In this document: positions 1-15,992 of the stretch, piece after piece
Layout: every line of letters begins with the position of its first letter
How positions within the stretch are numbered: the first letter of the stretch is position 1
From: Pseudomonadota bacterium
GTDB lineage: Bacteria; Bdellovibrionota_B; Oligoflexia; Silvanigrellales; Silvanigrellaceae
Assembly (NCBI GenBank): GCA_039799905.1
Contig: JBDLRP010000023.1
Span: forward strand, 1-17,182
Reading direction: 5' to 3'
Length of the DNA stretch: 17,182 bases
Made by a program: the position numbers and the translations under genes
Notes under the pieces: generated by a model
What the model was told of the DNA's origin: nothing
What the model saw: only the letters and a program-made list of their open reading frames with translations
The model's database searches: none

Positions 1-894
1 GTTGGAGTCGGCGAAAAACTCGGACTGCATTTTGACGTGCTCAAAGAAGTCAATCCGCGCATCATCACCTGCAGCGTGACGGGCTTTGGCGAAACAGGCC
101 CCAACCGTGACTGCACAAGCTTTGATATGGTGGCGCAGGCGACGGGCGGAGGTATGACGCTCACAGGCGATGGCGTTCATCCGCTGCGGTCGGGAATTCC
201 GATTGGTGACTTGGGCGGCGGTTTGATGGCGACAATCGGCATTCTTACAGCGCTGCAGGCCCGAGTGCGCAGTGGCAGCGGACAGCATGTGGATATTTCC
301 ATGCAAGATGCGCAAGTGAGCCTTTTGAATTACATGGCAACCATGACCGCATTGTCGGGCGAGGCGCCCAAGGCCAATGGCAATGCCCACTTTGTCCATG
401 TTCCATATGATTCATTTCCGACGCGCGACAAGCACATCATCATTGCCATCATTACAAATGAACTGTGGAAAACTTTTATTGAAACCATGGGGCTCGCTGA
501 GCTTGACACTGCCGAGAATGCCGAACAGCCCGGCCGCTGGAAAAACAGAGATATTATCACCCGCGCGCTCAGTGACGCGTTGCGCGAGCGCTCGTGTGAA
601 GAGTGGCTGGCAATTTTGCGTCCGGCCGGAGTGCCCTGTGCGCCGGTCAACGACGTTCATGCGGTGCTCAACGATCCGCATCTGCACGCCCGCAACATGA
701 TTGTCGACGTTCCGCATGTGAGCGGTCGTAGTGTGCGTCAGGCGGGTAATCCTGTGAAACTTTCTGCGGCAGGTGAAGACACATTCAGCCCACCGCCGAG
801 AGTCGGCGAGCACACGCACGCAGTGCTGACTGATTTACTGGGATATTCCGAGTCTGCGCTGTCTGAACTTCGCAATGCTGGGGTGATTCAATGA
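1..894 (+). CDS. Family III CoA-transferase (CaiB/BaiF/formyl-CoA transferase family), 5'-truncated by the window edge
   Basis: The frame is open from base 1 (VGVGEKLGLHFDVLKEVNPRII..), so GTG at 37 is not the real start. Family motifs: NPRIITCSVTGFGETGP, FD..AQA.GG.M, 'PIGDLGGG' (catalytic Asp position), 'G.GQHVDISM', PYDSF.T.D, GVPCAPVN, PPPRVGEHT..VL..LG.. Confidence 0.93.
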   Translation, partial: VGVGEKLGLHFDVLKEVNPRIITCSVTGFGETGPNRDCTSFDMVAQATGGGMTLTGDGVHPLRSGIPIGDLGGGLMATIGILTALQARVRSGSGQHVDISMQDAQVSLLNYMATMTALSGEAPKANGNAHFVHVPYDSFPTRDKHIIIAIITNELWKTFIETMGLAELDTAENAEQPGRWKNRDIITRALSDALRERSCEEWLAILRPAGVPCAPVNDVHAVLNDPHLHARNMIVDVPHVSGRSVRQAGNPVKLSAAGEDTFSPPPRVGEHTHAVLTDLLGYSESALSELRNAGVIQ

Positions 895-1862
895 TTCAAA
901 ATGAGCAACACGCGCAGGCGCAGTCCGCCCACTCGGGCGAATTTGATTTTTCATCCGCACCGCTCAGGTACTGGGAAGTCAGTCCGCGCGACGGCCTGCA
1001 AAGCGAAAAGCAGATTCTCCCGCTGCAGGTTAAACGCGACCTTATTTTCGGTCTGATGGATGCTGGCGTGAGGCACATTGAAGCGGGTAGCTTCGTCAAG
1101 GCGATACCTCAGCTGGCCGATACCGACGCGCTGATTGAGTCGCTTCAAACCCATCCCCTGCGCTCGCAGACAAAACTCACCGGACTCATTTTCAATGAGA
1201 AGGGCCTTGAGCGTGCATCAACTGCGGGCGTTGACGGAGTCTGCATTGTTGCGATTCCCTCGGATCAACTGTCGTTAAAAAATTGCGGCGCAGATGCGCG
1301 CGAAGGTTTGCGCCGTGCATTGCTCTTGGCAGACGAGGCCAAGGCTCGTGGGCTTTTTGTGCGGGTTGACGTTGCGACCTCGTGGGTGTGTCCATTTGCC
1401 GGCGCGATGCCCGAACAGCTCGTGCTCGATTACGTTTCGCAGATTCTTGAAAAACCGAGTGTCGACGAACTCGCGCTCGCTGACACTATCGGTCACGCTC
1501 ATCCACTGCAGGTGTTGTCGACCTTCTTGAAGCTTGGCAAGCGCTTTGGCACGGAAAGGCTCGCCGGACATTTTCACGACACGCAGGGGCTCGCTTTGGC
1601 CAATGTCACTGCAGCGCTCACAGCAGGGGTGAGAATTTTTGATGCCTCGTTGGGTGGACTGGGTGGATGCCCATTTGCCCCCGGTGCTGCCGGAAATCTT
1701 GCGACGGAAGACCTCCTTCTCATGGTGCAGAAGTTTACTCCGCCGCAGCTCAGCGATGTATCGCTGCCTTCCTTGTGGAAGGTGATAGGCGACGTCGAGC
1801 GCGAAGTGGGTCGCACGTTGGGCGGGCGCAGTGCGCAGTGGTGGAGGAACAGTCAGAAATGA
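891..1862 (+). CDS. HMG-CoA lyase / (R)-citramalyl-CoA lyase family (DRE-TIM metallolyase)
   Basis: EVSPRDGLQSE (RD motif), IEAGSFV, LADTIG.A.P, GHFHDT.G.ALAN (metal-binding HxH), GLGGCPFAPGAAGNLATEDL. ATGA overlap with the upstream stop at 891-894. Confidence 0.9.
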   Translation: MIQNEQHAQAQSAHSGEFDFSSAPLRYWEVSPRDGLQSEKQILPLQVKRDLIFGLMDAGVRHIEAGSFVKAIPQLADTDALIESLQTHPLRSQTKLTGLIFNEKGLERASTAGVDGVCIVAIPSDQLSLKNCGADAREGLRRALLLADEAKARGLFVRVDVATSWVCPFAGAMPEQLVLDYVSQILEKPSVDELALADTIGHAHPLQVLSTFLKLGKRFGTERLAGHFHDTQGLALANVTAALTAGVRIFDASLGGLGGCPFAPGAAGNLATEDLLLMVQKFTPPQLSDVSLPSLWKVIGDVEREVGRTLGGRSAQWWRNSQK

Positions 1863-3331
1863 CACAGTTCCTGCGAGTTGGTTCTGCGCTTTTGAAAAAA
1901 GACAACAGCACCCTCAGTCGCCCGCGCACGCTGCTGGATAAAATTTGGGAAAAGGCCACTGTCGTATCCGAGTGCGCCGATCATCCTGCGGTGATTTTTG
2001 TTGACCTTCATGTGTTGCATGAGGTGACTTCGAGTCAGGCCTTCGCAGCATTGCAAAAGCGCGGACTGCCGGTGCTGCACCCTGAGCGGACACTGGCTCT
2101 CACAGATCATGCTGTCCCCACGGCATCGCCGGACTCGCGCGGGCGCTGGCCCTTCGCCAGTGAACAAACCCGCCATGCGGTCGAGACCCTGCAACGGAAT
2201 TCTCAGGCAAACGGCATCAAATGTTTTGCTCTGGATGACGATCGGCAAGGCATCGTTCATGCAGTTGTTCCTGAACTGGGACTCACGTGGCCCGCGACAG
2301 TGATTGCCTGTGGCGACAGTCACACCAGCACACAGGGCGCCTATGGTGCTTTAGCGTTTGGAATAGGCAGCAGCGAGGTGGCCGCAGTGCTTGCGACACA
2401 GACGCTGTTGATGAAAAAGCCGCGCGCGTTGCGTGTCGAACTGACCGGCAGTCATAAGCCTTTGGGTGTCACGGCAAAAGACATCGCACTGGCAGTGCTG
2501 GCTGAAATCGGAGTCGGTGGAGCACAGGGCGGAGTGATTGAGTTTTGCGGCGATGCCATTCCTTTACTCTCGATGGATGAGCGCATGACGCTCTGCAATC
2601 AAAGTGTCGAGGCTGGCGCACGCACGGGACTCATCGCGCCCGATGCAATTACGTTTGCAGACCTGCAGCAGCGCACCGGTGTTCCGGTCGGCACGGAGTT
2701 TGCAGAGCTCTGCGCACAGTGGAGCGCATTCAAATCCGATGAAGGCGCTGTCTATGAAAGAACTTGGACCATCAACATCGAAAAATTATCGCCCCGTGCG
2801 ACATATGGAACTCTTCCTGCGCTGTCGCTGGCTCTGGACGAAAATATTCCCGCGCATCCGCCTGCAGGTTGTGATGAACAGCAGTGGCGTGCCGGACTCG
2901 AATACATGGCCATGGAGGCGGGCAAGCCGTTGCGCGGAACGCGCGTTCAGCATGTGTTTATAGGCAGCTGCACGAATGGCCGGCTGAGTGATTTGCGATT
3001 GGCGGCAGAACTCTTGCGCGGCAAGAAGATTTCGCCCGACGTCAAAATGTGGGTTGTTCCCGCGAGCCGTTCAATCAAACGTGCCGCTGAGGCAGAAGGG
3101 CTCGATCAGGTGTTTAAATCGGCGGGTGCGCTCTGGCGTGAATCGGGCTGCTCACTGTGTGTGGCCATGAACGGCGATTTTATTCCGGCGGGTGAGTTGT
3201 GTGTGAGCACGAGCAACCGCAATTTTGCACACCGGCAGGGACCTTTGAGCAGAACGATTCTCGTCAGTCCGCTCACAGCGGCCGCAACTGCACTCACTGG
3301 TCAGCTCACCGATCCGCGGGAGGTGCTCTGA
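1859..3331 (+). CDS. leuC: 3-isopropylmalate dehydratase large subunit-like (aconitase family, 4Fe-4S), divergent LeuC paralog
   Basis: RTLLDKIW, HEVTS, TDH.VPT, CGDSHT, FIGSCTNGR, GCSLC, STSNRNF. All three Fe-S Cys present. Start moved from the track's 1667 to ATG 1859 (ATGA overlap with the lyase stop), giving 490 aa. Substrate may not be isopropylmalate. Confidence 0.88.
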   Translation: MTQFLRVGSALLKKDNSTLSRPRTLLDKIWEKATVVSECADHPAVIFVDLHVLHEVTSSQAFAALQKRGLPVLHPERTLALTDHAVPTASPDSRGRWPFASEQTRHAVETLQRNSQANGIKCFALDDDRQGIVHAVVPELGLTWPATVIACGDSHTSTQGAYGALAFGIGSSEVAAVLATQTLLMKKPRALRVELTGSHKPLGVTAKDIALAVLAEIGVGGAQGGVIEFCGDAIPLLSMDERMTLCNQSVEAGARTGLIAPDAITFADLQQRTGVPVGTEFAELCAQWSAFKSDEGAVYERTWTINIEKLSPRATYGTLPALSLALDENIPAHPPAGCDEQQWRAGLEYMAMEAGKPLRGTRVQHVFIGSCTNGRLSDLRLAAELLRGKKISPDVKMWVVPASRSIKRAAEAEGLDQVFKSAGALWRESGCSLCVAMNGDFIPAGELCVSTSNRNFAHRQGPLSRTILVSPLTAAATALTGQLTDPREVL

Positions 3332-3966
3332 TGAGTCAGCAAGGTTGGACACACTGGACGGGTCGTGCGGTTGTTCTTGCGCGGGACAACATCGACACAG
3401 ACCAAATCTACCCCGGCCGTTTTCTTGCACTGACAAACCGTGCCGACATGGCACCTGCTTTTTTTGCGGACTGGCGCTTTGATGTCGATGGACGTCCACG
3501 TGCGGATTCTCCTTTTAGAGAGGGTCAGAGCGTTCTTGTCGCAGGCGAAAATTTTGGCTGCGGATCGTCGCGTGAGCATGCTGTCTGGGTGATGCAGGAT
3601 TTTGGAATTCGTGCCGTTCTGGCGCGTTCCTTTGCGCCCATCTTCAGACAGAATGCAATCGCAAACGGAATCGCCCCTGTGCAGATCCCTGCTGACGTTT
3701 GGCAGGAGCTGACCCAAGACCCGACGGCGCGATTTGAAATCACAGTTGACTTGCTTGCAGGTCAGGCGCTTGCATTTTCAACACAGCCGCTCGTTTTGAA
3801 ACTCTTTCAATTTTCGCTCGATCCGTTCGATGTGCATTGCCTGCGCAACGGAGTCGACCCGCTCGGCTTTCTGCTGTCATCTGTCGACCTGCAAAAAGCA
3901 TTTCTGCAAAACAAAAGTAACCGCCATTCCTTACAAGTCTATTTTTCCAAGGGAGAATCAACGTGA
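3331..3966 (+). CDS. leuD: 3-isopropylmalate dehydratase small subunit-like (LeuD)
   Basis: DNIDTDQI.P.RFL, F.DWRF, LVAGENFGCGSSREHAVW, FA.IF..N...NG. Start moved to ATG 3331 (TGATG overlap with the leuC stop), giving 211 aa. Confidence 0.88.
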   Translation: MSQQGWTHWTGRAVVLARDNIDTDQIYPGRFLALTNRADMAPAFFADWRFDVDGRPRADSPFREGQSVLVAGENFGCGSSREHAVWVMQDFGIRAVLARSFAPIFRQNAIANGIAPVQIPADVWQELTQDPTARFEITVDLLAGQALAFSTQPLVLKLFQFSLDPFDVHCLRNGVDPLGFLLSSVDLQKAFLQNKSNRHSLQVYFSKGEST

Positions 3967-4901
3967 CCACCGCCGCACAAGGACATCAGCCCATGAACAA
4001 CCCAAACGCTCTTCCCAAGCCCGCACCGCTGCGCGCAAATCCGCGCACATCCATTGGCCGGCTGCATGTCGAGAGCGAACAGTCGCTTTACTCTGTGGTT
4101 GAGTTTACAAAGACACCCTTTCAGATTGCCAACTTCATCGGTGGCGATCGCGGCGAGACACAAATTCTTTCTCAAGACGCGGCAACCGGTGAGTCCACGC
4201 AGCGTGTGACCATCAAAAAAGGCTGGCAGGCGCCCATTGGTCACTTCGACACTGACGTCGAAATTTTTGTGCTCTCCGGTGAACTCAAACAGGGCGGATT
4301 CAAGCTGCGCAATCTTTCCTACACCTACCTTCCGGCTGGTCTTGCCACGGGGCCGTGGGAAGCCTCGGAAGAAACTGTTCTGCTTTTCATGCCCGATCGC
4401 AAACCTAATTATCTGACCGCTCCCTATGCTGATCTTGAGCAAATTCCTGAGAATTCCGCTTATCATTTGAACACGCAGATGAACGACCGGATGGTCGACT
4501 ATATTCCATGCAAAGAAATCAATTCGATGAACTGGGAGCAGACCACATTCCTGCCGGCCGGTTCTGCGCGCAAGAGCCTGTTCAAGTGTCCGCGCACCGG
4601 CCGTGCGACCTGGATTTTGGGTCTTGTGCCGATGTGGATCGAAGGCAACTTCTTTGCAGGGCATCCGACCGCCGAGGAGGCGTATTTGATTCGCGGCGAC
4701 GTGCAGGGTCATTGGAGCATGCAGGATGATCCGTTCAATCGTCGTTACTCAGCAATGCGCGACAATGGTTACTACTGGCGTCCGGCGCATATCGCGCACG
4801 GGCCGTTTTGGTCCGAGAGCGGTGCCCTTTGCCTTTTCCGCACCAAGGATCGTCTTGATTGCCACTGGGCACTTCACAATCCCGACATCACCCAGCGCTG
4901 A
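3963..4901 (+). CDS. Two-domain cupin protein (DUF4437/ChrR-cupin-like)
   Basis: Two cupin-like repeats: GHF...VEIFVLSGEL...YTYLPAG and GHPTAEEAYLIRGD...YYWRPAHIAHGPF. GTGA overlap with the leuD stop and AAGGGAG RBS at about 3949-3955. An alternative ATG is at 3993. Confidence 0.7.
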   Translation: MTTAAQGHQPMNNPNALPKPAPLRANPRTSIGRLHVESEQSLYSVVEFTKTPFQIANFIGGDRGETQILSQDAATGESTQRVTIKKGWQAPIGHFDTDVEIFVLSGELKQGGFKLRNLSYTYLPAGLATGPWEASEETVLLFMPDRKPNYLTAPYADLEQIPENSAYHLNTQMNDRMVDYIPCKEINSMNWEQTTFLPAGSARKSLFKCPRTGRATWILGLVPMWIEGNFFAGHPTAEEAYLIRGDVQGHWSMQDDPFNRRYSAMRDNGYYWRPAHIAHGPFWSESGALCLFRTKDRLDCHWALHNPDITQR

Positions 4902-4916
4902 GCGAAGGAACTTTTT

Positions 4917-6200
4917 ATGAATCAGAAAATCTCTTCATATGGCTGGTTGATGGTGGCGTGCGGATTTCTGATTCTGCTTGTGACCAACGGAATGACCCTG
5001 ACGGGCATCACCGTCTTTGACAATCTCTTGCTCACTGAATTCGGCTGGCAACGGGGTGCGCTGAAATTGCGCGACCTCATCACCTTTGCCGGTGCTGGAA
5101 TGATAGCGCCCCTGTTTGGATACTATGCGGACAAAGGACACATCAAAAATTGTCTTTTGCTGGGCTGCGGCTTTTTGGCTGCAGGCCTCATCGTTTATTC
5201 AAAGGTTGAATCGCTGGCAGGTGTTTACCTTGCGCATGCGTTCTTTGGTTTGTCGCTGGCTGCTGCTGGAATCGTCAGTGTTGTGTTCTTGGTGTCGACG
5301 CAGGTTCCAGCTTCGCGCCGTGGTCTTGCCCTCGGACTTGCGTTGGTTGGTTCGAGCTTAGGGAATACCGTGTTTCCGCAGCTAAGCCTCAACCTGCTCA
5401 AAAGCATGGACTGGCGCTCTGCATTTTTGAACCTGAGTCTTGTTCCTGCGCTGCTCGCGGTGGCGATTGTGTTTACTGTGCGCAGAAGGATGCTGCGTCC
5501 GCCACAGGGCGCTGTCACCAGTTCCACGCAGGAATCAGTCACTGCCACTTCCGAATCCGAATCCGTTAATGTTGTTCCATCGCAGCCCCTCTCGTCGATT
5601 TTGCTGAGCAGCGCGTTCTGGAAAATCGGCATCATTGCGATGCTGACGTTCTTTGCGATTCTTGGTGTGACAAGCCACGCCTTTTTGCGCCTCACGGGTG
5701 CCGGTTTTGCTCCTCAGGAGGCAGGCCGCGCGATTGGAATTTTGTTCATGATGGGCCTTGTGGGCAAGCTCTTTTCGGGAGTTTTTGCCGATCGCTTTTC
5801 ACATCGCACGCTGATGGCTGTGTCGCTGCTGCTGATGATCGCCGGCGCAGTTGGTCTGGCGTCTTTCGTGTCGCAGGGGTTGCTCTATTGGGTGGTCGCC
5901 TTTGGTCTCGGCTGGGGAGCGCTCTACACACTCATTCAGATTGCCACTGTCTCATCTTTCGGCACAGTTGGCTCTGGGCGCATCTTGGGAGCCATTGCGG
6001 TTCTCGAGGCATTGGGCGGCGGACTTGGGCCGTGGCTGATTGGTCTGACCTTCGACAAGACAGGGTCATATTCGTTTGGCTTCTCGCTGATTGCCGCAGG
6101 TCTTGTCGTGGCGTTTGTGCTCAGCAGGTTGTTGCCAGAGTCCCGTAGCCATTTTGCTGCAGCAGTGCAGAAACAATCAGTTTTCCCGAACGCTTTGTAA
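4917..6200 (+). CDS. MFS transporter (12-TM, monocarboxylate/OFA-like)
   Basis: About 12 hydrophobic segments. MFS motif A variants GYYADK and GVFADRF; 'RRGLALGL...GSSLG', 'WRSAF', 'G..FDKTGSY'. AAGGA RBS in a 15-bp gap after the cupin gene. Confidence 0.9.
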   Translation: MNQKISSYGWLMVACGFLILLVTNGMTLTGITVFDNLLLTEFGWQRGALKLRDLITFAGAGMIAPLFGYYADKGHIKNCLLLGCGFLAAGLIVYSKVESLAGVYLAHAFFGLSLAAAGIVSVVFLVSTQVPASRRGLALGLALVGSSLGNTVFPQLSLNLLKSMDWRSAFLNLSLVPALLAVAIVFTVRRRMLRPPQGAVTSSTQESVTATSESESVNVVPSQPLSSILLSSAFWKIGIIAMLTFFAILGVTSHAFLRLTGAGFAPQEAGRAIGILFMMGLVGKLFSGVFADRFSHRTLMAVSLLLMIAGAVGLASFVSQGLLYWVVAFGLGWGALYTLIQIATVSSFGTVGSGRILGAIAVLEALGGGLGPWLIGLTFDKTGSYSFGFSLIAAGLVVAFVLSRLLPESRSHFAAAVQKQSVFPNAL

Positions 6201-6278
6201 TAACTTCGGGTTTCTCTCCAGTCGGCGCAGATGTGCAAGCGCAGAGTAAATGCCTGGATCAAAAAACCCTAAAACATC

Positions 6279-6305
6279 TCACATTAATTCTGTACCTGCC
6301 GATCC
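6279..6305 (+). promoter_or_regulatory. Possible sigma28 (FliA)-type promoter
   Basis: TCAC-N15-GCCGATCC, about 40 nt upstream of the ATG at 6345. Resembles the consensus TAAA/TCAA-N15-GCCGATAA. Confidence 0.35.
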
Positions 6306-6344
6306 CTGAGCGAGCGGGCTGACCTGCCCAGAAGCGAGGATCCC

Positions 6345-7106
6345 ATGAAACACGCCGCATATGCCCTCTTTGCAGTGATTGTCCTTGCACCCTTGGGCTG
6401 CAAACCAAAGAGCACGGATACTCAGGTTTCTGGTGCTTCTATGCAACAAGGGGAAAGGCATCTCGTATTTGCCGAAAGCGGATTTCAGCACAAGGTAAGT
6501 TGTGAGTTCAAAATCAGACAGGGAGATACTCCAGCCCAGTGGCAGAGTGCTCCCGAGATAGCCGGTGCACGAAAGCAGGTTGAATTACTTATTAACAAAG
6601 TTGGTCTTTTGGCGGAGTATCGTGTTTGTGTCGACGTTTTCTCGAGAGACAACATTCGAACGGTGAAGTTGGATTCAAAAAGCTGCGCGGCACGTGAATG
6701 TGCCCCTCCGGCAACTGGACTCCAGCGGCTCGTAAACGCTGCCGACGCCGGAATAGAGGATGGTAATTTTGTTTCACGAACGACAATATACTTAAATGAC
6801 TGGACCCGCGGTGAGAAAGAACAAACTTCAATTCACCTGAGTGAAAAGAGAGTACATCTGACGTGGCGAATGACGGACGATATCAGTAAGCCTGATTTCA
6901 AAGTCGACGGAAAAGAGCTAACCACGTGGGCGAGGCAAAATTCCGGCAAGATTTGCGCATCACTCAAGCGAAGCCAGAAAGCCGGATTGAACAGCGAACA
7001 AGCTTATAGCGCATTGAGTGAGGAGTTCAGAGCCGCCGGTCTCGACGACCAGGAAGCCGGAATCGTTGCGGAACTCGTGAAGAGCGAAAACTGCGGGGGG
7101 TTGTAG
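6345..7106 (+). CDS. Hypothetical lipoprotein
   Basis: 253-aa ORF with GAGGA RBS. Basic N-terminus, hydrophobic stretch, lipobox PLG-C19 followed by KPK. No family recognised. Confidence 0.7.
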   Translation: MKHAAYALFAVIVLAPLGCKPKSTDTQVSGASMQQGERHLVFAESGFQHKVSCEFKIRQGDTPAQWQSAPEIAGARKQVELLINKVGLLAEYRVCVDVFSRDNIRTVKLDSKSCAARECAPPATGLQRLVNAADAGIEDGNFVSRTTIYLNDWTRGEKEQTSIHLSEKRVHLTWRMTDDISKPDFKVDGKELTTWARQNSGKICASLKRSQKAGLNSEQAYSALSEEFRAAGLDDQEAGIVAELVKSENCGGL

Positions 7107-7128
7107 ACTAGCTCAAAAGTAGTTTGCT

Positions 7129-8010
7129 CTAGCGCCCTTCCAGCAATTCAATGGAATATCCATCGGGGTCTTTTATAAAAGCCATCCCGCCTTTACCGCT
7201 TGGAGTCGTTGAAGGCCCCCAAGAGAAATCCCAACCCGCCCGTTTGATTCTTTCACCGAACTCTTTCAGTGAGGGAACGGCAAGTGCGATGTGACCATAG
7301 CCCTTGCCAAGGTCATAAGCTTCAACTCCCCAGTTGTAGGTGAGCTCCAACTCAGGCTCGTCGCCTGTTCCAGCCCTCACACGCAAAAAGGCGAGTGTGA
7401 ATTTACCTTCGGGATAATCGCTTTTGCGCGCTAATTCGAAGCCAAGAACTCGCGTGTAAAAGTCGATGCTCCTATTGAGGTCACCAACCCGCAGCATTGT
7501 GTGCAGAAACCTGTATCCTTCTTTTGCCGATAATTTTTCATCAAGAGTGGCAACGAGTTTCTCGAGACCGTGCTGATCGGCATCATCAAAACGGTTCTCG
7601 AGTGGACTATCGATGTCGAGCACTCCGATGAGCTTTCCACCGACGTGCACGGGCACCACAATCTCGGATCGTGTTGCGCTATCACACGCTATGTGTCCGG
7701 CGAATTTCTCAACATCGGGCACCAGAATAGTTTTGTTTTGCAGAGCCGCAGTGCCGCAAACTCCGCGGCCAAGTTTTATTCGTGTGCATGCGAGCTTTCC
7801 TTGAAACGGGCCAAGTACGAGCTCATCGGATTTGAGCAGATAAAAACCCGCCCAGTTGATGTCCGGCAGGCTTGAATAGAGGAGCGCCGAAACGTTTGCC
7901 AGATTGGCGTGAAAGTCGCTTTCGGCATCGAGCAGCGAACGCACTGCCGAATTGAGCGATTCGTACATGGCAGATTTGTCGGACGAACTGATTTCAAATT
8001 GCATCGACAC
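7129..8010 (-). CDS. Fusion of GAF-type free methionine-(R)-sulfoxide reductase (MsrC/YebR) and lactoylglutathione lyase (glyoxalase I, GloA)
   Basis: N-half: WAGFYL, LVLGPFQGKLAC, GRGVCGTAA, HIACD..TRSEIVVP, GVLDIDSP. C-half: LHTMLRVGDL.RSIDFY..VLG, GKFTLAFL, ELTYNW, GYGHIA, AFIKDPDGY.IEL. Start is probably GTG 8010 or ATG 8004 after GGAGGAGG (8016-8023), not 8220. Confidence 0.9.
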   Translation of the reverse strand: MSMQFEISSSDKSAMYESLNSAVRSLLDAESDFHANLANVSALLYSSLPDINWAGFYLLKSDELVLGPFQGKLACTRIKLGRGVCGTAALQNKTILVPDVEKFAGHIACDSATRSEIVVPVHVGGKLIGVLDIDSPLENRFDDADQHGLEKLVATLDEKLSAKEGYRFLHTMLRVGDLNRSIDFYTRVLGFELARKSDYPEGKFTLAFLRVRAGTGDEPELELTYNWGVEAYDLGKGYGHIALAVPSLKEFGERIKRAGWDFSWGPSTTPSGKGGMAFIKDPDGYSIELLEGR

Positions 8011-8208
8011 AGTGGCCTCCTCCAGATTGTACCTTTGCGGTGCACTCGGGCGCGTCCGAGTTATTCCCGATTCAGACGAGGGGTTACGAAAAACTGCTCC
8101 AACCATCAAGGACGTTGCGATTTGAACTGCTGGGAAGTGATAGTGAGGACAACCAAGGAGTAACTTTGTGATTGGCGTAACTAACTGTATATACTGCAAA
8201 TATATGTG

Positions 8209-8241
8209 ATTGTTAAACAATTTTGCTAATCGCTCCGATAC
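8209..8241 (+). promoter_or_regulatory. Possible sigma28-type promoter with an overlapping palindromic operator
   Basis: TAAA(8214-8217)-N16-TCCGATAC(8234-8241), about 25 nt upstream of the TTG start at 8266. The perfect inverted repeat ATTGTT-A-AACAAT (8209-8221) covers the -35 element. Confidence 0.45.
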
Positions 8242-8265: not shown

Positions 8266-9483
8266 TTGAAGAAATTATTTTTATTGGCGATTCTGATGGC
8301 TGCTGGCTGTTCAGAGGGCGGTTACAACAGTGCCGCGCCAAAGGTGAAGCCTCCGCCGGCCAAAAAGAAAAGTTCTACTGAGAATGTGACGCAAAAAGAA
8401 CCGGCGAAAAAGCAAGCAGAGAGCGCTGCTGAGTCGGTCTCGCAAAAACTTTTCAATGTGGCGATCCTGACTCAAAGTGTTCAATGCCTTTTTTGCCACA
8501 TGAAGATCGAAGGTGATGTCGGCGGTATTCAGTTCCCACCCAACAACGAAATGCACCCGCGCGCAGGTGAGGGGCTGAGAATTCTTGGGACACTGTTTGG
8601 CACAAATGAGATCCCAAACAAATTGGGCAACGCACCGCAGGCCGCTTCAACCCGGCCCAACTACGCAAACACCGAGCTGAAGATATTTCCAACAACAAAA
8701 GACGGCAGCGGAAACATTGTTTTTCCCACGGTGACTCGAGAAATGCTGGCTGGCAAAACCAAAGGCACGCTCAAAGCAGGATCGACGACTGTTCAAGACA
8801 GTCATTCAGGAGATCTGACTTTGGTCGACAGCGGGGCAGCTATCGAGCTCAATGGTGAAGTCTTTGTAGACGGCGATTTGATTATTGGTGGAAATTATCG
8901 CGGCGTCGGAACGATTTATGCGCGTAATATTTTTATTGTAAAGGACCTCAAGGCAGTCAATTCAGCCTTTCCCTTTCCTGCCGATCCGGCAGCTGCAAAA
9001 GAGCGCGGCAAGGCAGCCATCAGCGAAAAGAAAGATGGTGCTTACTTGTTCGCACTTGGTCAAATCACGGTCGGCTACCCTGATCCTGCATTTTTGAATG
9101 ACAAAAGCTGGATGCATTCGAACGTGGGTGCAAATGCATTCACACGTGCACAGCCGTCCATGGGCCTCAATTCCTACGTTGCACTGCGGGAGCAAAAAAA
9201 TTGCAATGAAATCAGTTTCGGGCACACCACTCAGTATCAGGCTGTGTTGGTCAACAAGGTTGATGCGTTTTTGTATGCAAGCGACTACCTGCTTTGGAGA
9301 ACCTGTAACACATTTGAGTTGAACGGCGGATTTGTTGCCCCCAACGTGGCTCTCGTAAATGCAGGCGATGCAAACCCACCGCAGATCTCATTGGAGCCGC
9401 GAAACGTGGTCCGCTATGACTATCGTCTGCGTGCAGGAGTGAGCGCGTTTTCTGTTCTGAAAAGCTTTTTTGAGCAGGAATAA
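8266..9483 (+). CDS. Hypothetical lipoprotein with a CxxCH motif and beta-solenoid-like repeats
   Basis: TTG start after AAGGGGG. MKKLFLLAILMAAG-C lipobox, K/P-rich linker, CLFCH at 8485-8499, strand-turn repeats (IELNGEVFVDGDLIIGG.YRGVGTIYARNIFI), C-terminal YDYRL. Confidence 0.7.
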   Translation: MKKLFLLAILMAAGCSEGGYNSAAPKVKPPPAKKKSSTENVTQKEPAKKQAESAAESVSQKLFNVAILTQSVQCLFCHMKIEGDVGGIQFPPNNEMHPRAGEGLRILGTLFGTNEIPNKLGNAPQAASTRPNYANTELKIFPTTKDGSGNIVFPTVTREMLAGKTKGTLKAGSTTVQDSHSGDLTLVDSGAAIELNGEVFVDGDLIIGGNYRGVGTIYARNIFIVKDLKAVNSAFPFPADPAAAKERGKAAISEKKDGAYLFALGQITVGYPDPAFLNDKSWMHSNVGANAFTRAQPSMGLNSYVALREQKNCNEISFGHTTQYQAVLVNKVDAFLYASDYLLWRTCNTFELNGGFVAPNVALVNAGDANPPQISLEPRNVVRYDYRLRAGVSAFSVLKSFFEQE

Positions 9484-9484
9484 T

Positions 9485-10408
9485 TTACTGAAAATTGCAT
9501 TCGCCGGCGGCACGTGACGCGGGTTCGGGACGGGGAAAAAGTGACCCGCGCAGATAATCGCCGAAGTTATTTTTGAAGTACGTCCAGCTTGAGACGTTCG
9601 CTTGGTTTTTAACGACGCATTTGGGAGCGTCGAGATAAATGCCGAGATCAGCTGAGGCGATCTGGCTGCGGATAAGCTCGGGAATGTCGTCAGTGGATTT
9701 TTGCTTTTGAACGAGCGCGTTGAAAACAAGGTGGCCGTTCAAAGCGCCCATTTTCATCCATGGCAGCCAAGGACTCACGCGGGTCCAGCTGACCTGCACG
9801 TCCACTACCGACGCGTTTGAAGCGAGACCGTCGAGATCCTCCCGCGAAAGAATATAGGTGAACGACTCGTGGGCCTTGTAAGTTGGTTCGGGCGAGTATG
9901 CCGCGAACTGATTGTCGCCTGCCAGCGGGTTTGGATAACTGAGCGGGACGTCGATTCGCACAATCGCGGTTTGCGCCGAACGTTCGGACACGAGCTGCGC
10001 TGCTGCGGGAATTTTCTGCTGCACAAGAGCGTTTGCGATGTGAACCACGGGAACTGTTTCGCCCGTCCAAGGATTTTTCCACTGGTTCAACAGAGCACCG
10101 GTTTGAGGATCGAGATAAAAGGTCAACTCTCGTGACGTCACTGTCCAGTTGCCGGATTCATCTTTGAAGCAGCGCGCAATGTTGAAGCCGACAATTTTGA
10201 AGAGCGTCTGGCTCCTTTCGGGTCCTACTCCGGTGGTGGTGACGTTGCCACTCCAAGTCGTGATGGCATTCTCCGCGCTCAGGTTGCAGCGGATTTTCAT
10301 GAAGTGCTCGGCACCGACGAAGGATTCCGATGCGGTTGCTCGACTTGCTGCGTGAGCTAAGAAGAGGCTGAGCAAAAGGGCAATGCTTTTGAATTGGGTC
10401 TGCAGCAT
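9485..10408 (-). CDS. DUF1838-family protein with Sec signal peptide
   Basis: Motifs recalled for this family: LFK..GFN..RC, SREL.FYLDP.TG, W.NPWTGE.VPVVH.AN, YPNPL, Y.A.E.F, SWTR.SPWLPWM.MG. Hydrophobic signal ending ..RATA-S. Confidence 0.72.
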   Translation of the reverse strand: MLQTQFKSIALLLSLFLAHAASRATASESFVGAEHFMKIRCNLSAENAITTWSGNVTTTGVGPERSQTLFKIVGFNIARCFKDESGNWTVTSRELTFYLDPQTGALLNQWKNPWTGETVPVVHIANALVQQKIPAAAQLVSERSAQTAIVRIDVPLSYPNPLAGDNQFAAYSPEPTYKAHESFTYILSREDLDGLASNASVVDVQVSWTRVSPWLPWMKMGALNGHLVFNALVQKQKSTDDIPELIRSQIASADLGIYLDAPKCVVKNQANVSSWTYFKNNFGDYLRGSLFPRPEPASRAAGECNFQ

Positions 10409-10545: not shown

Positions 10546-10573
10546 TTATCGGCCGGTTGCGGACTTTATTTTG
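10546..10573 (-). promoter_or_regulatory. Possible sigma28-type promoter for the DUF1838 gene
   Basis: Minus strand reads CAAA-N16-GCCGATAA. The -10 (10546-10553) is a perfect match to the sigma28 consensus and lies about 140 nt upstream of ATG 10408. Confidence 0.4.
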
Positions 10574-11699
10574 GAATGAATTGAAGGGTTTTCTTGTTGG
10601 TGGAACAGACAGCCGGCGCTGCTGAGCCTGCGGGAGCTGCCGGTGCTCCAGCACAGCATCTCTCAACTTCAACCATGAATGACTGAACGGCCGCACCGCT
10701 TGGAAGTCTCATATCTCCGCCCTCTCCGGCGCGGGCAAGTTCATTTCCCTTTTGATCGCGAGCGATTGCCGATTTCAACGAACATGCTTGTCCAGGTATG
10801 AACTCATCGATGAATTCACTCAGCATGATGGACTCCGTGAATGGAAATTCAAACGCGCGACCCGAGATAGCAATTTTTTGCGACAATGCATTGAGCTGAC
10901 CGTGTGCCGCAAATTCCGCACTCATGGACCGCTGAGCACATCCAAAAAAGGTCATCAGTGAACAGGTTTCCACCTGCCGCGCGGTGGAGTGATAAAACTT
11001 CATTTGTGCTTTGAGTTCTGCGGGCAGCGCTGCAAACACTTGCTCGAGCTGCGTCGTCGAGAAGTCTCGGTGGTTGCCGTTGATCGCGTAGCTGATGGCA
11101 TCGGCGATGTAGAGGATAATTTTGCTTGCGCCAGCACGTCCGGGATTATTGATTGAATCCTGACTCAGCAGGCGGACTGCTGCGGCAAGTGCTGCTTGTC
11201 CTGCTTCCTGAACATCGTCACCGCCGTCCGCATACCAGCCGCGGATGGCCGTTGCCAGCGATTTTTCATCCGAAAAAGGCACGATTTGAGTCACTAAATC
11301 GCGGTATCCGACAGCTGCAAACCGTGCGTCCCAGCCTTTGTCCTGCCGCAGTTGCAGAGCAAATCTCTCGACTCCGTTTTTCACTGTATTGAGGCTGTCT
11401 TCCATGCTCGCAGTGATGTCCACGACAAAAACAATGTCGGCCGGTCGCCGTTCCGATTTTCCGTCGGACACGCAATTCCTTGCGAAGTTGAGCACAGATG
11501 TTTGCGCATTGTTGATTCGCACTTCCGGCAGCTTTTCTTGTTCGCAGGAAATCGGAAAGCCTACGCTCGCGACTTTCGCTGGGAGCTCCTTTTTACCGAC
11601 GGGAAGATTCGAGGACTGGAATTGTGTCGGTTTGCAGCCAACAGCACCGAGCAGCGCAAACATAAGTGCGATGGGTCGTCGTGCGTTGTGAATTAGCAT
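10566..11699 (-). CDS. VWA (von Willebrand factor A) domain lipoprotein
   Basis: ADIVFVVDITASM (MIDAS DxTxS), RFAAVGYRD, GGDD.QEA, KIILYIADA. Lipobox AVG-C then KP. Start likely ATG 11699 (GAAAGGAAG RBS) rather than 11726. Confidence 0.82.
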   Translation of the reverse strand: MLIHNARRPIALMFALLGAVGCKPTQFQSSNLPVGKKELPAKVASVGFPISCEQEKLPEVRINNAQTSVLNFARNCVSDGKSERRPADIVFVVDITASMEDSLNTVKNGVERFALQLRQDKGWDARFAAVGYRDLVTQIVPFSDEKSLATAIRGWYADGGDDVQEAGQAALAAAVRLLSQDSINNPGRAGASKIILYIADAISYAINGNHRDFSTTQLEQVFAALPAELKAQMKFYHSTARQVETCSLMTFFGCAQRSMSAEFAAHGQLNALSQKIAISGRAFEFPFTESIMLSEFIDEFIPGQACSLKSAIARDQKGNELARAGEGGDMRLPSGAAVQSFMVEVERCCAGAPAAPAGSAAPAVCSTNKKTLQFIPK

Positions 11700-11718
11700 T
11701 GTCCACTTCCTTTCGCTC

Positions 11719-12330
11719 TTATGCACTCATCCGCGCAATTCCTCGGACGTCTGCTTTTTTCTTTGAAATACAGTCGTAAATGATGGCCGGTGGTATGTTC
11801 CTGAACTCCAGTTTCTTTGAGCGGATTTGAAAAAAATCAGCAAACTTTCGGCCCAGCACCGTCGTGTATTGGAAAGCGACGAAATGTCCGTCAGCCCTCA
11901 GAACCCGAGCGGCAGTAGAAAGAATTTCGTCTGTCATCTCGTTGCTCAAACTTGTGAAGGGAAGGCTTGAAACAATGGCCTCGACGCCGTCGATTCCGCG
12001 TTCGCCAAGAATTTTTTCAAGGTGGCGCGCGTCTGCGTGGATGATTTCGACGTTTTTTGATTGGCTGAGTCTTTCCTTCAGAAGTCGAACGGCATCAGCA
12101 TTCACATCGATGATCAAAACCTTCGTCTGTGGTCCGGCCTGACGTAGAACTTCGGACGTTATCGAACCCGTGCCTGCGCCGAGTTCAACGATGCATGTTG
12201 CTGACTGCGCGTTCATGCAGCCGATCATTTTTCTGGCGAGAAAGCGCGATGATGGGATGATCGTGCCAATCTGATGGGGTGAGCGAACGAAATGCCGTAT
12301 CGTGTGCGCAATGTCCTTCCAAGGCTGCAT
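11719..12330 (-). CDS. Class I SAM-dependent methyltransferase, phospholipid N-methyltransferase (PmtA)-like
   Basis: F..SP.QIGTIIPSSRFLA, IVELGAGTGSIT, DA..L, IVSSLPF, F..FQY, NIPPA..Y. Strong GGAGG RBS upstream. Confidence 0.82.
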   Translation of the reverse strand: MQPWKDIAHTIRHFVRSPHQIGTIIPSSRFLARKMIGCMNAQSATCIVELGAGTGSITSEVLRQAGPQTKVLIIDVNADAVRLLKERLSQSKNVEIIHADARHLEKILGERGIDGVEAIVSSLPFTSLSNEMTDEILSTAARVLRADGHFVAFQYTTVLGRKFADFFQIRSKKLEFRNIPPAIIYDCISKKKADVRGIARMSA

Positions 12331-12443: not shown

Positions 12444-13064
12444 TCATTGCAGATTTTCTGAAGGTGCTGCTGCGCCTTCCTCTCTACCCTGCGACGGAAG
12501 ACCACGGCGGCGCCACTGTCCCGCTCTGGCATGTGACTCGCCCTGTATGTTGGTCGGTGGGCTGCGGCGCGGCAACGCTGCCAAGCCGGCAAGGTGGTTG
12601 TGCAATGCTGTGGCAGAGAGATTTGACAGATTCATCGCGAGCTCGAGGATGTTCACCCGCTGTCTCAGTTCTTTGCCGATCTGGTCACGCAAATCACCGA
12701 GGATTTTGCTCTCAGCCACTATCACGAGCTCGGTCGTGTTGTGCTGAGCGATAAATTCACAGAGCAATTCCGCAACATCACGTGCGAACCGCTTGCTGAT
12801 TTCCTTCTGATGCCTTCCCAGATGGTCGTCATAGCCATGCATGGTCTGGGCCATTCCAGAAAGTCCTACACGATAAGAGAAGCGATTTCCGCCGCTCAGG
12901 GTTTCGTTCTTTTGGTTGAGCCAGTGCTTGTTGGGTACATTTTTTTCACACTTGAGAATAGGGCTCCATTGTTCGCGCGGACGCTCTGCCTGATGCAGAA
13001 GGAACAATTTCGCTTTGCTGAGATCAACCGTCAGCACGGCAATATTTTTCATCTGTGACCTCAC
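12444..13064 (-). CDS. Host attachment protein (AtsE/Host_attach, baeRF-like release-factor-domain family)
   Basis: V...D..KA.LF, 'RFAR.VAE.L', 'LVIVAE..ILGDLR', '..NLS.LS...L..HL' pattern. Start is GTG 13064 or ATG 13052. Confidence 0.68.
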   Translation of the reverse strand: MRSQMKNIAVLTVDLSKAKLFLLHQAERPREQWSPILKCEKNVPNKHWLNQKNETLSGGNRFSYRVGLSGMAQTMHGYDDHLGRHQKEISKRFARDVAELLCEFIAQHNTTELVIVAESKILGDLRDQIGKELRQRVNILELAMNLSNLSATALHNHLAGLAALPRRSPPTNIQGESHARAGQWRRRGLPSQGREEGAAAPSENLQ

Positions 13065-13279
13065 GGCAATGGTGAGTTGTGGTCAAACCCGAGCGCAGTT
13101 TGGAAGTCTCTCGGGAGTTGCCTGACATTAGCCCGATGAATCTCGGGTTTCAGGCAGAAAATCTTTGAATCGAGAAAGCATTTATTTGAGATTTTGTTCA
13201 TTTCGCTGACATTCACCTTGTCCCTGTGTTTGCTAAGCTCCTAAGGCGGGAATTGCGGATGGTTGAGCCTGGAGGCGAC

Positions 13280-15044: not shown

Positions 15045-15992
15045 ATGATGAGTGTGTGGAGCGCAGCCTCCACTCTCGTTTTATTTTCTCCCCCGACCCC
15101 GCAAGTACAAAAACAGCAACCCCCTGCACCGCCCACAGTGGGCGCGCAGCAGGTTTTGTCGACCGCTGAATTTTCTTCTGTTTGGCGCGCCTTATTCGCA
15201 TCGGAGGCAGAGTCATCCGATTGTGGTGCCGCGAAGGATTTGCGCAAAAGTGATGAAGCGTGGATTGCTCAGGATGCGTTCTTGGTGCAGCTGCGTGGCT
15301 TCCGATCATCTATCTGCAAGGCACAGGCATGGTATGTTGCCTCGATGCGTCTCGATCCGTGCCGCATGCGTTTGAATCGGGAAAACAAAAGCTCAGCTGA
15401 CATTCACAGTTGTTCACAAAATGGCAAATTCAGCGAGGTTCGCTTCGTACTGCAGCCGGTGGAAAAAACGGATCATGGATACATTTTTCCGGACGCAGCT
15501 CTGCACGTTGCTTTTACAGTCACTGACCTGAAAAAAATCATGAAAGCGTGGCGGAGCCAAACCCCTGAGCAGCTGATAAAACTCGTGAGAGACAATGGTA
15601 AATTCAACGACATATCATTGTTCATCGGGGGTGGTGGTCTGGAACGCTGGAGTTTTGCGCGCATCGCACACACGGACGGCATCTGGAAGCGCGACAGACT
15701 TGCACATGGTGGTTATTACGAGTCGCTGAGCGATGCCGAATTGAATTCTGTCGCTGTCAAAACCCAGCGTCCCAAAAGCGAGAAAGAATTTTCGCCTGCA
15801 GAATTTCTCAATCCTCTGAAAGTGCACCCATTGCAAGGAAGCTGTATTGGGTGCCACGTGGCTGAACAGGGTCGTCCAGCGCGGCTGTTCCGCATGTTCG
15901 GCTGGGGATTGGCAGGCGAGCCGGTCGTTTCTGCGCGGCTGCGGGCAGAGGCTGAGTTCGCCGCGAAAGAGCTGCAAATTCTGGAAAAGTAA
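15045..15992 (+). CDS. Hypothetical exported protein with a C-terminal CxxCH (putative c-type cytochrome)
   Basis: 315 aa, GAGGA RBS, 13 bp after the upstream stop. P/Q-rich linker; motifs R.DPC, EVRFVLQP, DAALH, NP...HP...SCIGCH (CxxCH at 15843-15857), FRMFGW. Confidence 0.65.
   Translation: MMSVWSAASTLVLFSPPTPQVQKQQPPAPPTVGAQQVLSTAEFSSVWRALFASEAESSDCGAAKDLRKSDEAWIAQDAFLVQLRGFRSSICKAQAWYVASMRLDPCRMRLNRENKSSADIHSCSQNGKFSEVRFVLQPVEKTDHGYIFPDAALHVAFTVTDLKKIMKAWRSQTPEQLIKLVRDNGKFNDISLFIGGGGLERWSFARIAHTDGIWKRDRLAHGGYYESLSDAELNSVAVKTQRPKSEKEFSPAEFLNPLKVHPLQGSCIGCHVAEQGRPARLFRMFGWGLAGEPVVSARLRAEAEFAAKELQILEK

Follow-up and report, generated by a model that had tools for sequence, protein, structure and literature searches.

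The stretch of DNA considered here, called the window below, is the entire contig JBDLRP010000023.1 (C23, 17,182 nucleotides) of the 3.38-Mb, 93.8%-complete genome assembly GCA_039799905.1 (G000), from a bacterium of the family Silvanigrellaceae. An operon of 11 translationally coupled genes has its distal half at positions 1 to 6200, and the genes there belong to a two-armed island of about 16 genes. Judging from the protein families encoded, the balance tips towards an accessory island that would mineralise a nitrogen-containing carboxylic acid, probably a cyclic amide or imide, or a half-amide, through hydration, coenzyme A (CoA) transfer and cleavage by a lyase.

Six genes of one strand occupy this part of the window, whose proteins were scored against Pfam and NCBIfam models with the curated cut-offs as thresholds (aa, amino acids; HMG, 3-hydroxy-3-methylglutaryl; MFS, major facilitator superfamily):

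1..894, + strand: family III (CaiB/BaiF-type) CoA-transferase, C-terminal 297 residues (PF02515, E 2.8e-74, profile positions 95-366)
891..1862, + strand: HMG-CoA-lyase-like (DRE-TIM) lyase, 323 aa (PF00682, E 4.2e-28)
1859..3331, + strand: LeuC-derived [4Fe-4S] dehydratase large subunit, 490 aa (PF00330, E 9.1e-139)
3331..3966, + strand: LeuD-type small subunit, 211 aa (PF00694, E 7.9e-25)
3963..4901, + strand: DUF4437 bicupin, 312 aa (PF14499, DUF4437, E 3.7e-20; PF12973, Cupin_7, E 1e-08)
4917..6200, + strand: MFS transporter of the oxalate/formate-monocarboxylate type, 427 aa (PF07690, E 6.8e-31)

The stop of the CoA-transferase gene and the start of the lyase gene share an ATGA at 891-894, as do the lyase and LeuC genes at 1859-1862. 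LeuC and LeuD, two polypeptides from adjacent genes with a one-base overlap, meet in a TGATG (3329-3333), and LeuD meets the cupin gene in a GTGA (3963-3966). A gap of 15 bases (4902-4916) then precedes the MFS gene, which starts at 4917 and stops at 6198-6200. The transporter comes nearest to the NCBIfam models for L-lactate MFS transporters and the oxalate/formate antiporter family, all of them under their cut-offs. An earlier reading, made from the letters of the window alone (the sequence-only reading), had described six co-directional, coupled genes with the same domain assignments and had seen no leuA or leuB in the window. The sequence and the list of open reading frames agree with it at every junction, and Pfam and NCBIfam bear out both the assignments and the absence, which extends to the rest of the genome, where neither gene was found. 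The operon is longer than the six genes described there, since five coupled genes precede them on another contig, C38, and it is only one arm of the island.

The upstream part of the operon could be retrieved from C38, which carries the five additional genes and the N-terminus of the CoA-transferase. This contig has 5211 bases, and it is the only one that ends in the first 121 bases of C23. The N-terminal 142 residues of the CoA-transferase are encoded at C38 4785-5210 and match PF02515 positions 1-130, so that the CoA_transf_3 domain is complete once the two parts are joined (positions 1-130 and 95-366). On the operon strand, the order on C38 is a CN-hydrolase, an aldehyde dehydrogenase (nearest to succinic-semialdehyde dehydrogenases), a DUF3598_N protein of 151 aa, an Amdase/maleate-isomerase-like protein, an isochorismatase-family hydrolase and the start of the CoA-transferase, with junctions that are, in turn, ATGA, a 9-base gap, ATGA, TGATG and GTGA. 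All 11 genes are, therefore, joined by start/stop overlaps or by gaps of at most 15 bases. Consensus scans of window positions 1-7200 and of C38 gave 0 promoter-like sites in the former and 1 in the latter, and terminator-like sites only within genes.

The join of C38 to C23 is independently backed by L041, a 2.6-kb contig from a closely related metagenome-assembled genome (MAG), and by unbroken copies in four genomes of the same genus. L041 carries the Amdase-like gene, the isochorismatase-like gene, the whole CoA-transferase gene and the start of the lyase gene, at 92-99% amino acid identity, and the CoA-transferase gene is uninterrupted in L041, G008, G004 and G010. The joins between the reverse complement of contig C2, C38 and C23 rest on unique 121-base end overlaps, and a single contig of G008 spans the same region. 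The G000 assembly is broken at graph nodes rather than at real gaps; the contigs C2 (reverse complement), C38, C23, C44 and C7 (reverse complement) can be chained by unique, identical overlaps of 121 bases at their ends.

The second arm lies on C2, whose start is overlapped by the start of C38 in reverse orientation. The order on C2 is a polyhydroxybutyrate-depolymerase-like esterase, a second lyase (HMGL2), an archaeal-type LeuC (LeuC2), a LeuD/DmdB-type small subunit (LeuD2), a second family III CoA-transferase (CaiB2) and an allantoinase/hydantoinase-like hydrolase (Hyd), the genes of this arm being joined by overlaps or by a 6-base gap. HMGL2 passes the HMG-CoA lyase subfamily cut-off (279 vs 246), and LeuD2 passes TIGR02087, a model that names DmdB. 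In G008, both arms lie on one contig, in divergent orientation and about 1.4 kb apart. The esterase between the arms was considered as an island member and dropped, as G008 has an unrelated Lys/Ala/Glu-rich protein in its place.

In four genomes, a stretch of about 85 nucleotides (nt) 5' of the CN-hydrolase gene, with which the long arm begins, is conserved. The 20-nt motif AATCACACTTRACTGATACG sits within a longer conserved stretch that bears a CTTGA-N10-TCAAG inverted repeat. In a search that permitted three mismatches, it has exactly two sites in the 3.38-Mb genome, one before each arm, and the control with the reversed pattern gave no sites:

C38:372-391, + strand: 20-nt motif site, 21 nt before the CN-hydrolase start
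C2:1136-1155, - strand: 20-nt motif site, inverted, 72 nt before the HMGL2 start

Both equivalent sites are present in G008, where the chance expectation is 0.01. The shared 20-mer is probably a common operator, which would make the two arms one regulon. No regulator gene was found near the motif sites or among the genes of the island, and Rfam gave no family match 5' of the operon.

The pair that connects the island to amino acid metabolism is LeuCD, which in leucine biosynthesis is the 3-isopropylmalate dehydratase (EC 4.2.1.33), and the family models could be taken to indicate ordinary leucine biosynthesis, that is, a housekeeping enzyme placed by chance among unrelated genes. The window LeuC passes NF004016 (584.7, cut-off 510) and NF009116, the window LeuD passes TIGR00171 (138.1, cut-off 116.25), and the Fe-S ligands are intact: LeuC keeps the cysteine motifs GSCTNG (residue 369) and GCSLC (residue 430), aligned with those of Escherichia coli LeuC, whose cysteines we take, by analogy with the aconitase family, to be the three [4Fe-4S] ligands. 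Nevertheless, LeuC does not reach the equivalog model TIGR00170 (528.9 vs 560.25), and it sits on a long stem and has changed motifs, as described below. LeuD likewise stays under NF002458 (164.7, cut-off 167), and the identities to the E. coli proteins are 46% for LeuC and 38% for LeuD.

The other enzymes of the pathway are also missing. A search for a separate canonical leuABCD found none: in the 93.8%-complete assembly, the only PF00682 matches are the two island lyases, which leaves no leuA, both Iso_dh proteins are isocitrate dehydrogenases, which leaves no leuB, and KARI_C has 0 matches for ilvC, while it matches in 14/14 control genomes. The aconitase-family matches of the genome are the two island LeuC genes and one true aconitase. 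Across the 13 genomes of the genus, no HMGL protein of LeuA size was found, the longest HMGL-like open frame being at most 374 aa. Six of the 12 sister genomes lack LeuC altogether, with matches only at the level of aconitase (26-28% identity), and in these six the gene is missing together with the whole island; in the window, it is translationally coupled to genes of catabolic type. A role in leucine biosynthesis is, on these grounds, hardly credible. Since the genome has no other genes of the leucine pathway, LeuCD is predicted to act in degradation. The sequence-only reading had proposed a leucine-biosynthesis hydratase reused for catabolism; its claim that the enzyme is not leucine-biosynthetic is supported by the missing leuA, leuB and ilvC and by the diverged clade.

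The divergence of the window LeuC can be traced to individual residues. Among 8000 scored candidates, nine relatives have 67-91% identity to it, all of them from MAGs or metagenomes, and the next matches are ordinary LeuC proteins of many phyla with at most 55% identity. A tree of 50 rows was built; besides the window protein and LeuC2, it took in the 11 best matches and every third of the other 109, with 72 left out. The ten cluster-type LeuC proteins form one clade with 100/100 support, on a stem of 1.01 changes per site, other supported inner branches measuring 0.03-0.46 changes per site. In 111 canonical LeuC proteins, 171 columns reach a conservation of at least 95%; the clade keeps the canonical residue in 152 of these columns, and in 14 at least eight of its ten members have another residue. 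The switches H159Q, M248Q and E457A/G458H fall in the GDSHT..H, CNM and NRNFEGR motifs, so that the clade has GDSHTSTQ, CNQ and NRNFAHR where E. coli LeuC has GDSHTATH, CNM and NRNFEGR. At these four positions, H, M, E and G are found in 95-100% of the 111 canonical proteins. From aconitase structures, we presume that the three motifs flank substrate-binding residues, and the changed residues argue for an altered substrate, not for a direction of the reaction. The clade is predicted to be neofunctionalised.

As LeuCD natively catalyses an isomerisation, it could also be used as an isomerase here, turning a 3-substituted malate delivered by the amidases into a cleavable 2-substituted malate, in a reversal of the chain elongation of leucine biosynthesis. 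The lyase belongs to LeuA's Pfam family (HMGL-like), and the order isochorismatase-CaiB-HMGL-LeuC-LeuD is kept in two genera, both of which speak for such a use. Nothing, however, separates it from a hydration, and the changed residues favour neither direction; we consider isomerisation quite unlikely.

The island is conserved as a set, and it is accessory. It is present in seven of the 13 genomes of the genus: LeuC of the window type (67-93% identity) and the cupin (93-97%) occur in the same six of the 12 other genomes, five of which also have LeuC2, the sixth being a 75%-complete genome. The order of all 11 genes is identical in G004, G006, G008 and G010, and the shorter contigs of G003 and G012 agree with it over the part that they cover. 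In the first four genomes, the MFS gene is always the last conserved one, and differing genes follow. Within the phylum, the cupin was found in eight of 131 genomes, namely seven of this genus and one of another genus, G019. There, one contig bears the CN-hydrolase, aldehyde dehydrogenase, DUF3598, MFS, HMGL2, LeuC2 (in two pieces), LeuD2, CaiB2 and Hyd genes, and two other contigs bear the isochorismatase-like, CaiB, HMGL, LeuC, LeuD and cupin genes. Six other genomes of the genus thus keep together the set that the sequence-only reading had picked out, and a second genus has it in rearranged form. Two gene copies in these genomes deserve a separate mention: the sole HMGL-like gene of the island-free genome G001 (C8:160388-161194, - strand) has an in-frame TAA, and the two separate pieces matched by LeuC2 in G019 lie at 6549-7731 (- strand) of locus L074 (contig C100). 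Both may be broken genes or sequencing errors.

Outside the phylum, the analysis covered 31 loci with relatives of the lyase. Two MAGs labelled 'Deltaproteobacteria', UBA6601 and RS363, bear a related island; the others with any partner are L041, one locus with a CoA-transferase beside the lyase and two with a single distant partner gene. UBA6601 has isochorismatase-like, CaiB and HMGL genes (48-63% identity), a CN-hydrolase and an MFS transporter, and then HMGL2, LeuC2, LeuD2 and CaiB2 (49-59%). Its 5' genes encode two aldehyde dehydrogenases, an alpha/beta hydrolase, two short-chain dehydrogenases and a methylisocitrate-lyase-like protein. In RS363, the isochorismatase-CaiB-HMGL block adjoins HMGL2-LeuC2-LeuD2-CaiB2, and genes for a CN-hydrolase, aldehyde dehydrogenases and an MFS transporter accompany them.

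The GC content of the island is 55.8%, against 52.6% for the genome, and only 1.7% of 1276 windows of 5 kb are as high, which agrees with an accessory, mobile history. In comparisons with four genomes of the genus, the proportion of synonymous differences (pS) is 0.62-0.80, near saturation, for all 11 genes of the operon, and the nonsynonymous divergence (dN) is 0.03-0.47. With dN in this range at near-saturated synonymous sites, purifying selection acts on each of the 11 genes. Constraint is 5-10 times stronger on the cupin (dN 0.028-0.042), the most constrained protein of the operon, and on the Amdase-like protein (0.030-0.065) than on LeuC, LeuD, the lyase, the amidase and the transporter. 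This strong constraint does not come from a recent transfer, as the synonymous divergence of the two genes equals that of the others.

What the island may degrade is suggested chiefly by its amidohydrolases. The isochorismatase-like protein has 3ot4/3uao (E 5.9e-37), which we take to be the NicF maleamate amidohydrolase, and the N-carbamoylsarcosine amidase 26st (E 1.1e-36) as its best solved relatives, and it aligns the TSGC cysteine motif in 'TTSGCVRAT'. The CN-hydrolase is nearest to formamidase and aliphatic amidase, and Hyd to allantoinase and D-hydantoinase. Since the three amidohydrolases come from unrelated superfamilies, the substrate probably contains nitrogen, and its amide bonds would be opened in turn. 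Alkyl-maleates taken up in free form, as the sequence-only reading had it, are disfavoured by these three enzymes, the aldehyde dehydrogenase and the second module, which point to a nitrogen-containing precursor instead. Its maleate-type product fits the presence of a NicF-like half-amidase upstream, although a route of the HMG or 3-methylglutaconate type would compete with it.

The predicted route would start with import of the acid by the MFS transporter. The amidohydrolases would then open and deamidate it, yielding ammonia and an unsaturated, maleate-type dicarboxylate, to which the LeuCD-derived Fe-S hydratase would add water, giving a 2-substituted malate. The CoA-transferase would activate the distal carboxylate, with succinyl-CoA or a similar donor, and the HMGL-like lyase would cleave the resulting 3-hydroxy-3-carboxyacyl-CoA to acetyl-CoA (or another acyl-CoA) and a 2-oxo acid. 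The second arm may do likewise on a second intermediate or a related substrate, and some earlier step would fall to the cupin together with the Amdase-like protein. Conversion of a half-amide to a dicarboxylate, a malate and a CoA ester is the most economical reading because of the position of the amidase and its likeness to known half-amidases, together with the precedents for LeuCD, the transferase and the lyase. As direct matches, the ectoine, pyridoxine, trigonelline, pantothenate, reductive pyrimidine and Rut pathways were also considered and set aside, since the island lacks their signature enzymes.

Several points weigh against this reading. One is the kinship of the transferase and the lyases. 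The CoA-transferase has succinate-hydroxymethylglutarate CoA-transferase (SUGCT; 9br7, E 6.9e-45) as its best solved relative and reaches no NCBIfam equivalog cut-off, the best models being those for mesaconate, glutarate and oxalate transferases. Among solved structures, the lyase comes closest to HMG-CoA lyases (EC 4.1.3.4; 1ydo, E 3.4e-46), and it retains the PRDG, HFHD and GGCP motifs at residues 32, 227 and 258, to which we ascribe, as in that family, catalytic roles. Its NF004283 score is just below the cut-off (240.6 bits vs 246), which HMGL2 (279) passes. Because of the transferase relative, the lyase motifs and the HMGL2 score, a substrate of the glutaconate/HMG type would fit this part of the island equally well. 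Further, the absence of leuA, leuB and ilvC is that of a 93.8%-complete assembly, and the island encodes neither a regulator nor an obvious oxygenase besides the cupin. The Amdase-like protein has no cysteine at either canonical position of maleate isomerase, as we assign these positions: where aligned to 2xed it reads 'VMGMS' and 'QVGTN', both invariant in 42 homologues, as is C168. An isomerase or decarboxylase mechanism cannot be assumed for it. Moreover, 25 of the 31 loci with lyase relatives, most of them relatives of 32-43% identity, match no other island protein. Finally, the isochorismatase-CaiB-HMGL block stands in UBA6601 and RS363 without a bacterial-type LeuCD at the locus and with no cupin found; bacterial-type LeuCD is, thus, not obligatory for this block.

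A route built on the glutaconate/HMG skeleton would have LeuCD hydrate 3-alkylglutaconates to 3-hydroxy-3-alkylglutarates, SUGCT-like transferases form the CoA esters and lyases of the HMG-CoA type release acetoacetate-type products and acetyl-CoA. Besides the relatives and motifs just given, the two lyases of UBA6601 score above the HMG-CoA lyase subfamily cut-off, as HMGL2 does. The archaeal phosphomevalonate dehydratase, a member of the aconitase family, dehydrates a 3-hydroxy-3-methyl acid, which makes this chemistry possible for the family. The window LeuCD, however, derives from bacterial LeuCD, with known substrates that are 2- or 3-substituted malates, the adjacent amidase is nearest to a maleamate amidase and no acetoacetate-activating enzyme is encoded in the island. 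We regard this route as unlikely, and keep the half-amide route as the preferred one.

The cupin and the Amdase-like protein are the best conserved proteins of the operon, and they link it to cyanobacteria. The AlphaFold 2 model of the cupin (mean predicted local distance difference test score, pLDDT, 89.2) has a bicupin fold, for which the sole close structure is 2qdr from Nostoc, labelled 'putative dioxygenase' and with no known function. The next fold matches are ChrR and generic bicupins such as oxalate decarboxylase, the generic bicupins reaching template modelling (TM) scores of at most 0.55. In the C-terminal barrel, 36 homologues show no variation at H234, E238, E239 and H279, which would fit a metal site. 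The sequence-only reading gave the cupin an upstream isomerase or oxygenase step, which is a guess. Outside the genus, its relatives at 60-76% identity are largely cyanobacterial (Nostoc, Anabaena, Scytonema, Symploca, Calothrix). Its ESM Atlas matches are DUF4437/ChrR-cupin clusters only, a metagenome scan gave only one near-identical 2-kb contig, and a plasmid collection held relatives only at 29% identity, in Novosphingobium. It was not found in UBA6601, RS363, three Kofleriaceae genomes or 401 sampled genomes of that phylum.

Relatives of the Amdase-like protein (C38:3359-4117) with 62-72% identity occur in the same cyanobacterial genera. Adjacency of the two genes there was read from the order of protein accessions alone. 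The accessions are consecutive in Nostoc sp. FACHB-973, Desmonostoc muscorum LEGE 12446 and Nostoc sp. CreGUA01, ChiSLP01 and ATCC 43529 (protein pairs P0139/P0347, P0327/P0230, P0329/P0244, P0326/P0223 and P0322/P0233). In Nostoc sphaeroides CHAB 2801 the two numbers differ by two, and in the Symploca MAGs they are not close. From this order, we infer that the cupin and the Amdase-like protein are encoded by an adjacent, conserved gene pair in Nostocales. In the window operon, the block of amidase, CaiB, HMGL, LeuC and LeuD genes sits between the two. The model of the DUF3598 protein (pLDDT 93.0) shows a calycin-type barrel, with BFA1, a Nostoc DUF3598 protein, an S-type phycobiliprotein lyase, Ycf58 and nitrobindins as fold neighbours, and the nearest named sequence relatives of the protein are in proteobacterial MAGs, Sphingopyxis and the haloarchaeon Halovivax.

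These cyanobacterial ties allow a more specific, and accordingly more speculative, proposal, which we hold to be a long shot: the island could mineralise alkyl-substituted compounds of the maleimide or maleamate type, such as the methyl-ethyl or methyl-vinyl maleimides and hematinic acid that come from the photo-oxidation of chlorophyll and bilins, or alkylated hydroxypyridines. Hyd would then be the imidase, the NicF-like protein the half-amidase and both LeuCD pairs dialkylmaleate hydratases, while the transferase/lyase pairs would split the dialkylmalates. The pigment-derived fragment would be dealt with by an upstream module in common with cyanobacteria, made up of the cupin/Amdase-like pair and the DUF3598 barrel; the fold neighbours of DUF3598 include bilin lyases and haem-binding nitrobindins.

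The occurrence of the same pair in Nostocales, which are rich in natural products, could also be read in favour of a biosynthetic island, in which the lyases would act as synthases and the LeuCD pairs as chain-elongation isomerases, while the MFS transporter would export a small acid or amide product. Chain-elongation biosyntheses (leucine, homocitrate) do combine DRE-TIM enzymes with LeuCD. The island, however, encodes three amidases of different superfamilies and two CoA-transferases, and no ligase, synthetase, non-ribosomal peptide or polyketide synthase, or tailoring enzyme. Its lyases, of 301-323 aa, are of the short HMG-CoA-lyase type, without the C-terminal domains of LeuA-type enzymes. 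Biosynthesis is, therefore, very improbable.

The rest of the window encodes proteins outside the operon. A 363-aa fusion of a GAF domain with a C-terminal glyoxalase I (lactoylglutathione lyase) domain, which passes TIGR00068, is encoded at 7129-8220 (- strand); such a combination of sensor and enzyme is unusual. A methyltransferase gene at 11719-12330 (- strand), whose product most resembles the ornithine-lipid N-methyltransferase OlsG (132.8 bits, under the cut-off), overlaps by 8 bases the start of a gene for a VWA-domain protein at 10566-11726 (- strand). At 12444-13064 (- strand) lies the gene of a 206-aa protein that matches Host_attach (PF10116) and the bacterial eRF1-like families baeRF 12 and 10. 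Five open reading frames have no Pfam or NCBIfam match, all on the + strand: 6345-7106 (253 aa), 8266-9483 (405 aa), 13226-15031 (601 aa), 15045-15992 (315 aa) and 16140-16943 (267 aa). The 405-aa protein and a DUF1838 protein (9485-10408, - strand) also adjoin the island in G008, G006 and G010.

If LeuCD acts as predicted, the island offers a clean natural case of a core enzyme of amino acid biosynthesis refitted for degradation, with candidate specificity residues visible, in a lineage that appears to have otherwise lost the leucine pathway. It also gives a context to DUF4437 proteins, to a cysteine-less clade of the Amdase/maleate-isomerase family and to small DUF3598 barrels, and ties them to a gene pair that is widespread in Nostocales. 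If the substrate proves to be an amide or imide that abounds in the environment, the island would supply a step still missing from the turnover of carbon and nitrogen in freshwater.

Several known systems resemble parts of the island. LeuCD-type enzymes hydrate maleate and alkylmaleates, and in Chloroflexus aurantiacus, the succinyl-CoA:(R)-citramalate CoA-transferase is of family III and the (R)-citramalyl-CoA lyase belongs to the HMG-CoA-lyase family. The (R)-citramalate branch of Chloroflexus and the island thus share, compared by family only, a family III transferase and an HMGL-family lyase, which are encoded by overlapping genes in the island. Unlike that branch, which serves carbon fixation, the island couples this pair to LeuCD, amidases and a transporter, has it twice and would use it in catabolism.

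The maleate hydratase HbzIJ of Pseudomonas alcaligenes and the 2,3-dimethylmalate dehydratase DmdAB of Eubacterium barkeri are likened to the island LeuCD by description only, as two-subunit Fe-S hydratases of the aconitase family in a degradative setting. There, the malate formed is either oxidised or cleaved directly, by a lyase of the isocitrate lyase family, whereas CoA activation is predicted for the island; the window LeuCD differs from them also in being of the bacterial-type LeuCD lineage, where it forms its own long-branched clade.

The maleamate pathway of aerobic nicotinate degradation (NicX, NicD, NicF, NicE) has its counterpart in the half-amidase of the isochorismatase family, the formamidase-like hydrolase and the maleate-isomerase-family protein of the island operon. 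The island, in contrast, has no NicX-type dioxygenase or hydroxylases, and its isomerase-family protein lacks both catalytic cysteines. The product of the maleamate pathway is isomerised to fumarate, whereas that of the island is predicted to be hydrated and activated with CoA.

A cyclic amidohydrolase, a CN-hydrolase, a protein of the Asp/Glu-racemase superfamily and an amidase are likewise found in the hydantoinase/N-carbamoyl-amidase routes (for hydantoin, or from creatinine through N-methylhydantoin and N-carbamoylsarcosine). These routes end in an amino acid, whereas the island has two hydratase/transferase/lyase modules after the amidohydrolases.

As to the single reactions, PMC8307300 provides precedents under Enzyme Commission (EC) numbers 4.2.1.31 (maleate hydratase), 2.8.3.20 (succinyl-CoA:(R)-citramalate CoA-transferase) and 4.1.3.46 ((R)-citramalyl-CoA lyase), and it links the LeuC of M. 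jannaschii to maleate hydratase. In the literature covered, outside of which most subscription journals lie, no description was found of these families coupled in one island, and none of DUF4437. Each type of reaction, then, has its precedent in a known system; what appears to be new is their coupling in one predicted catabolic island, the duplication of the module and its supply by three amidohydrolases.

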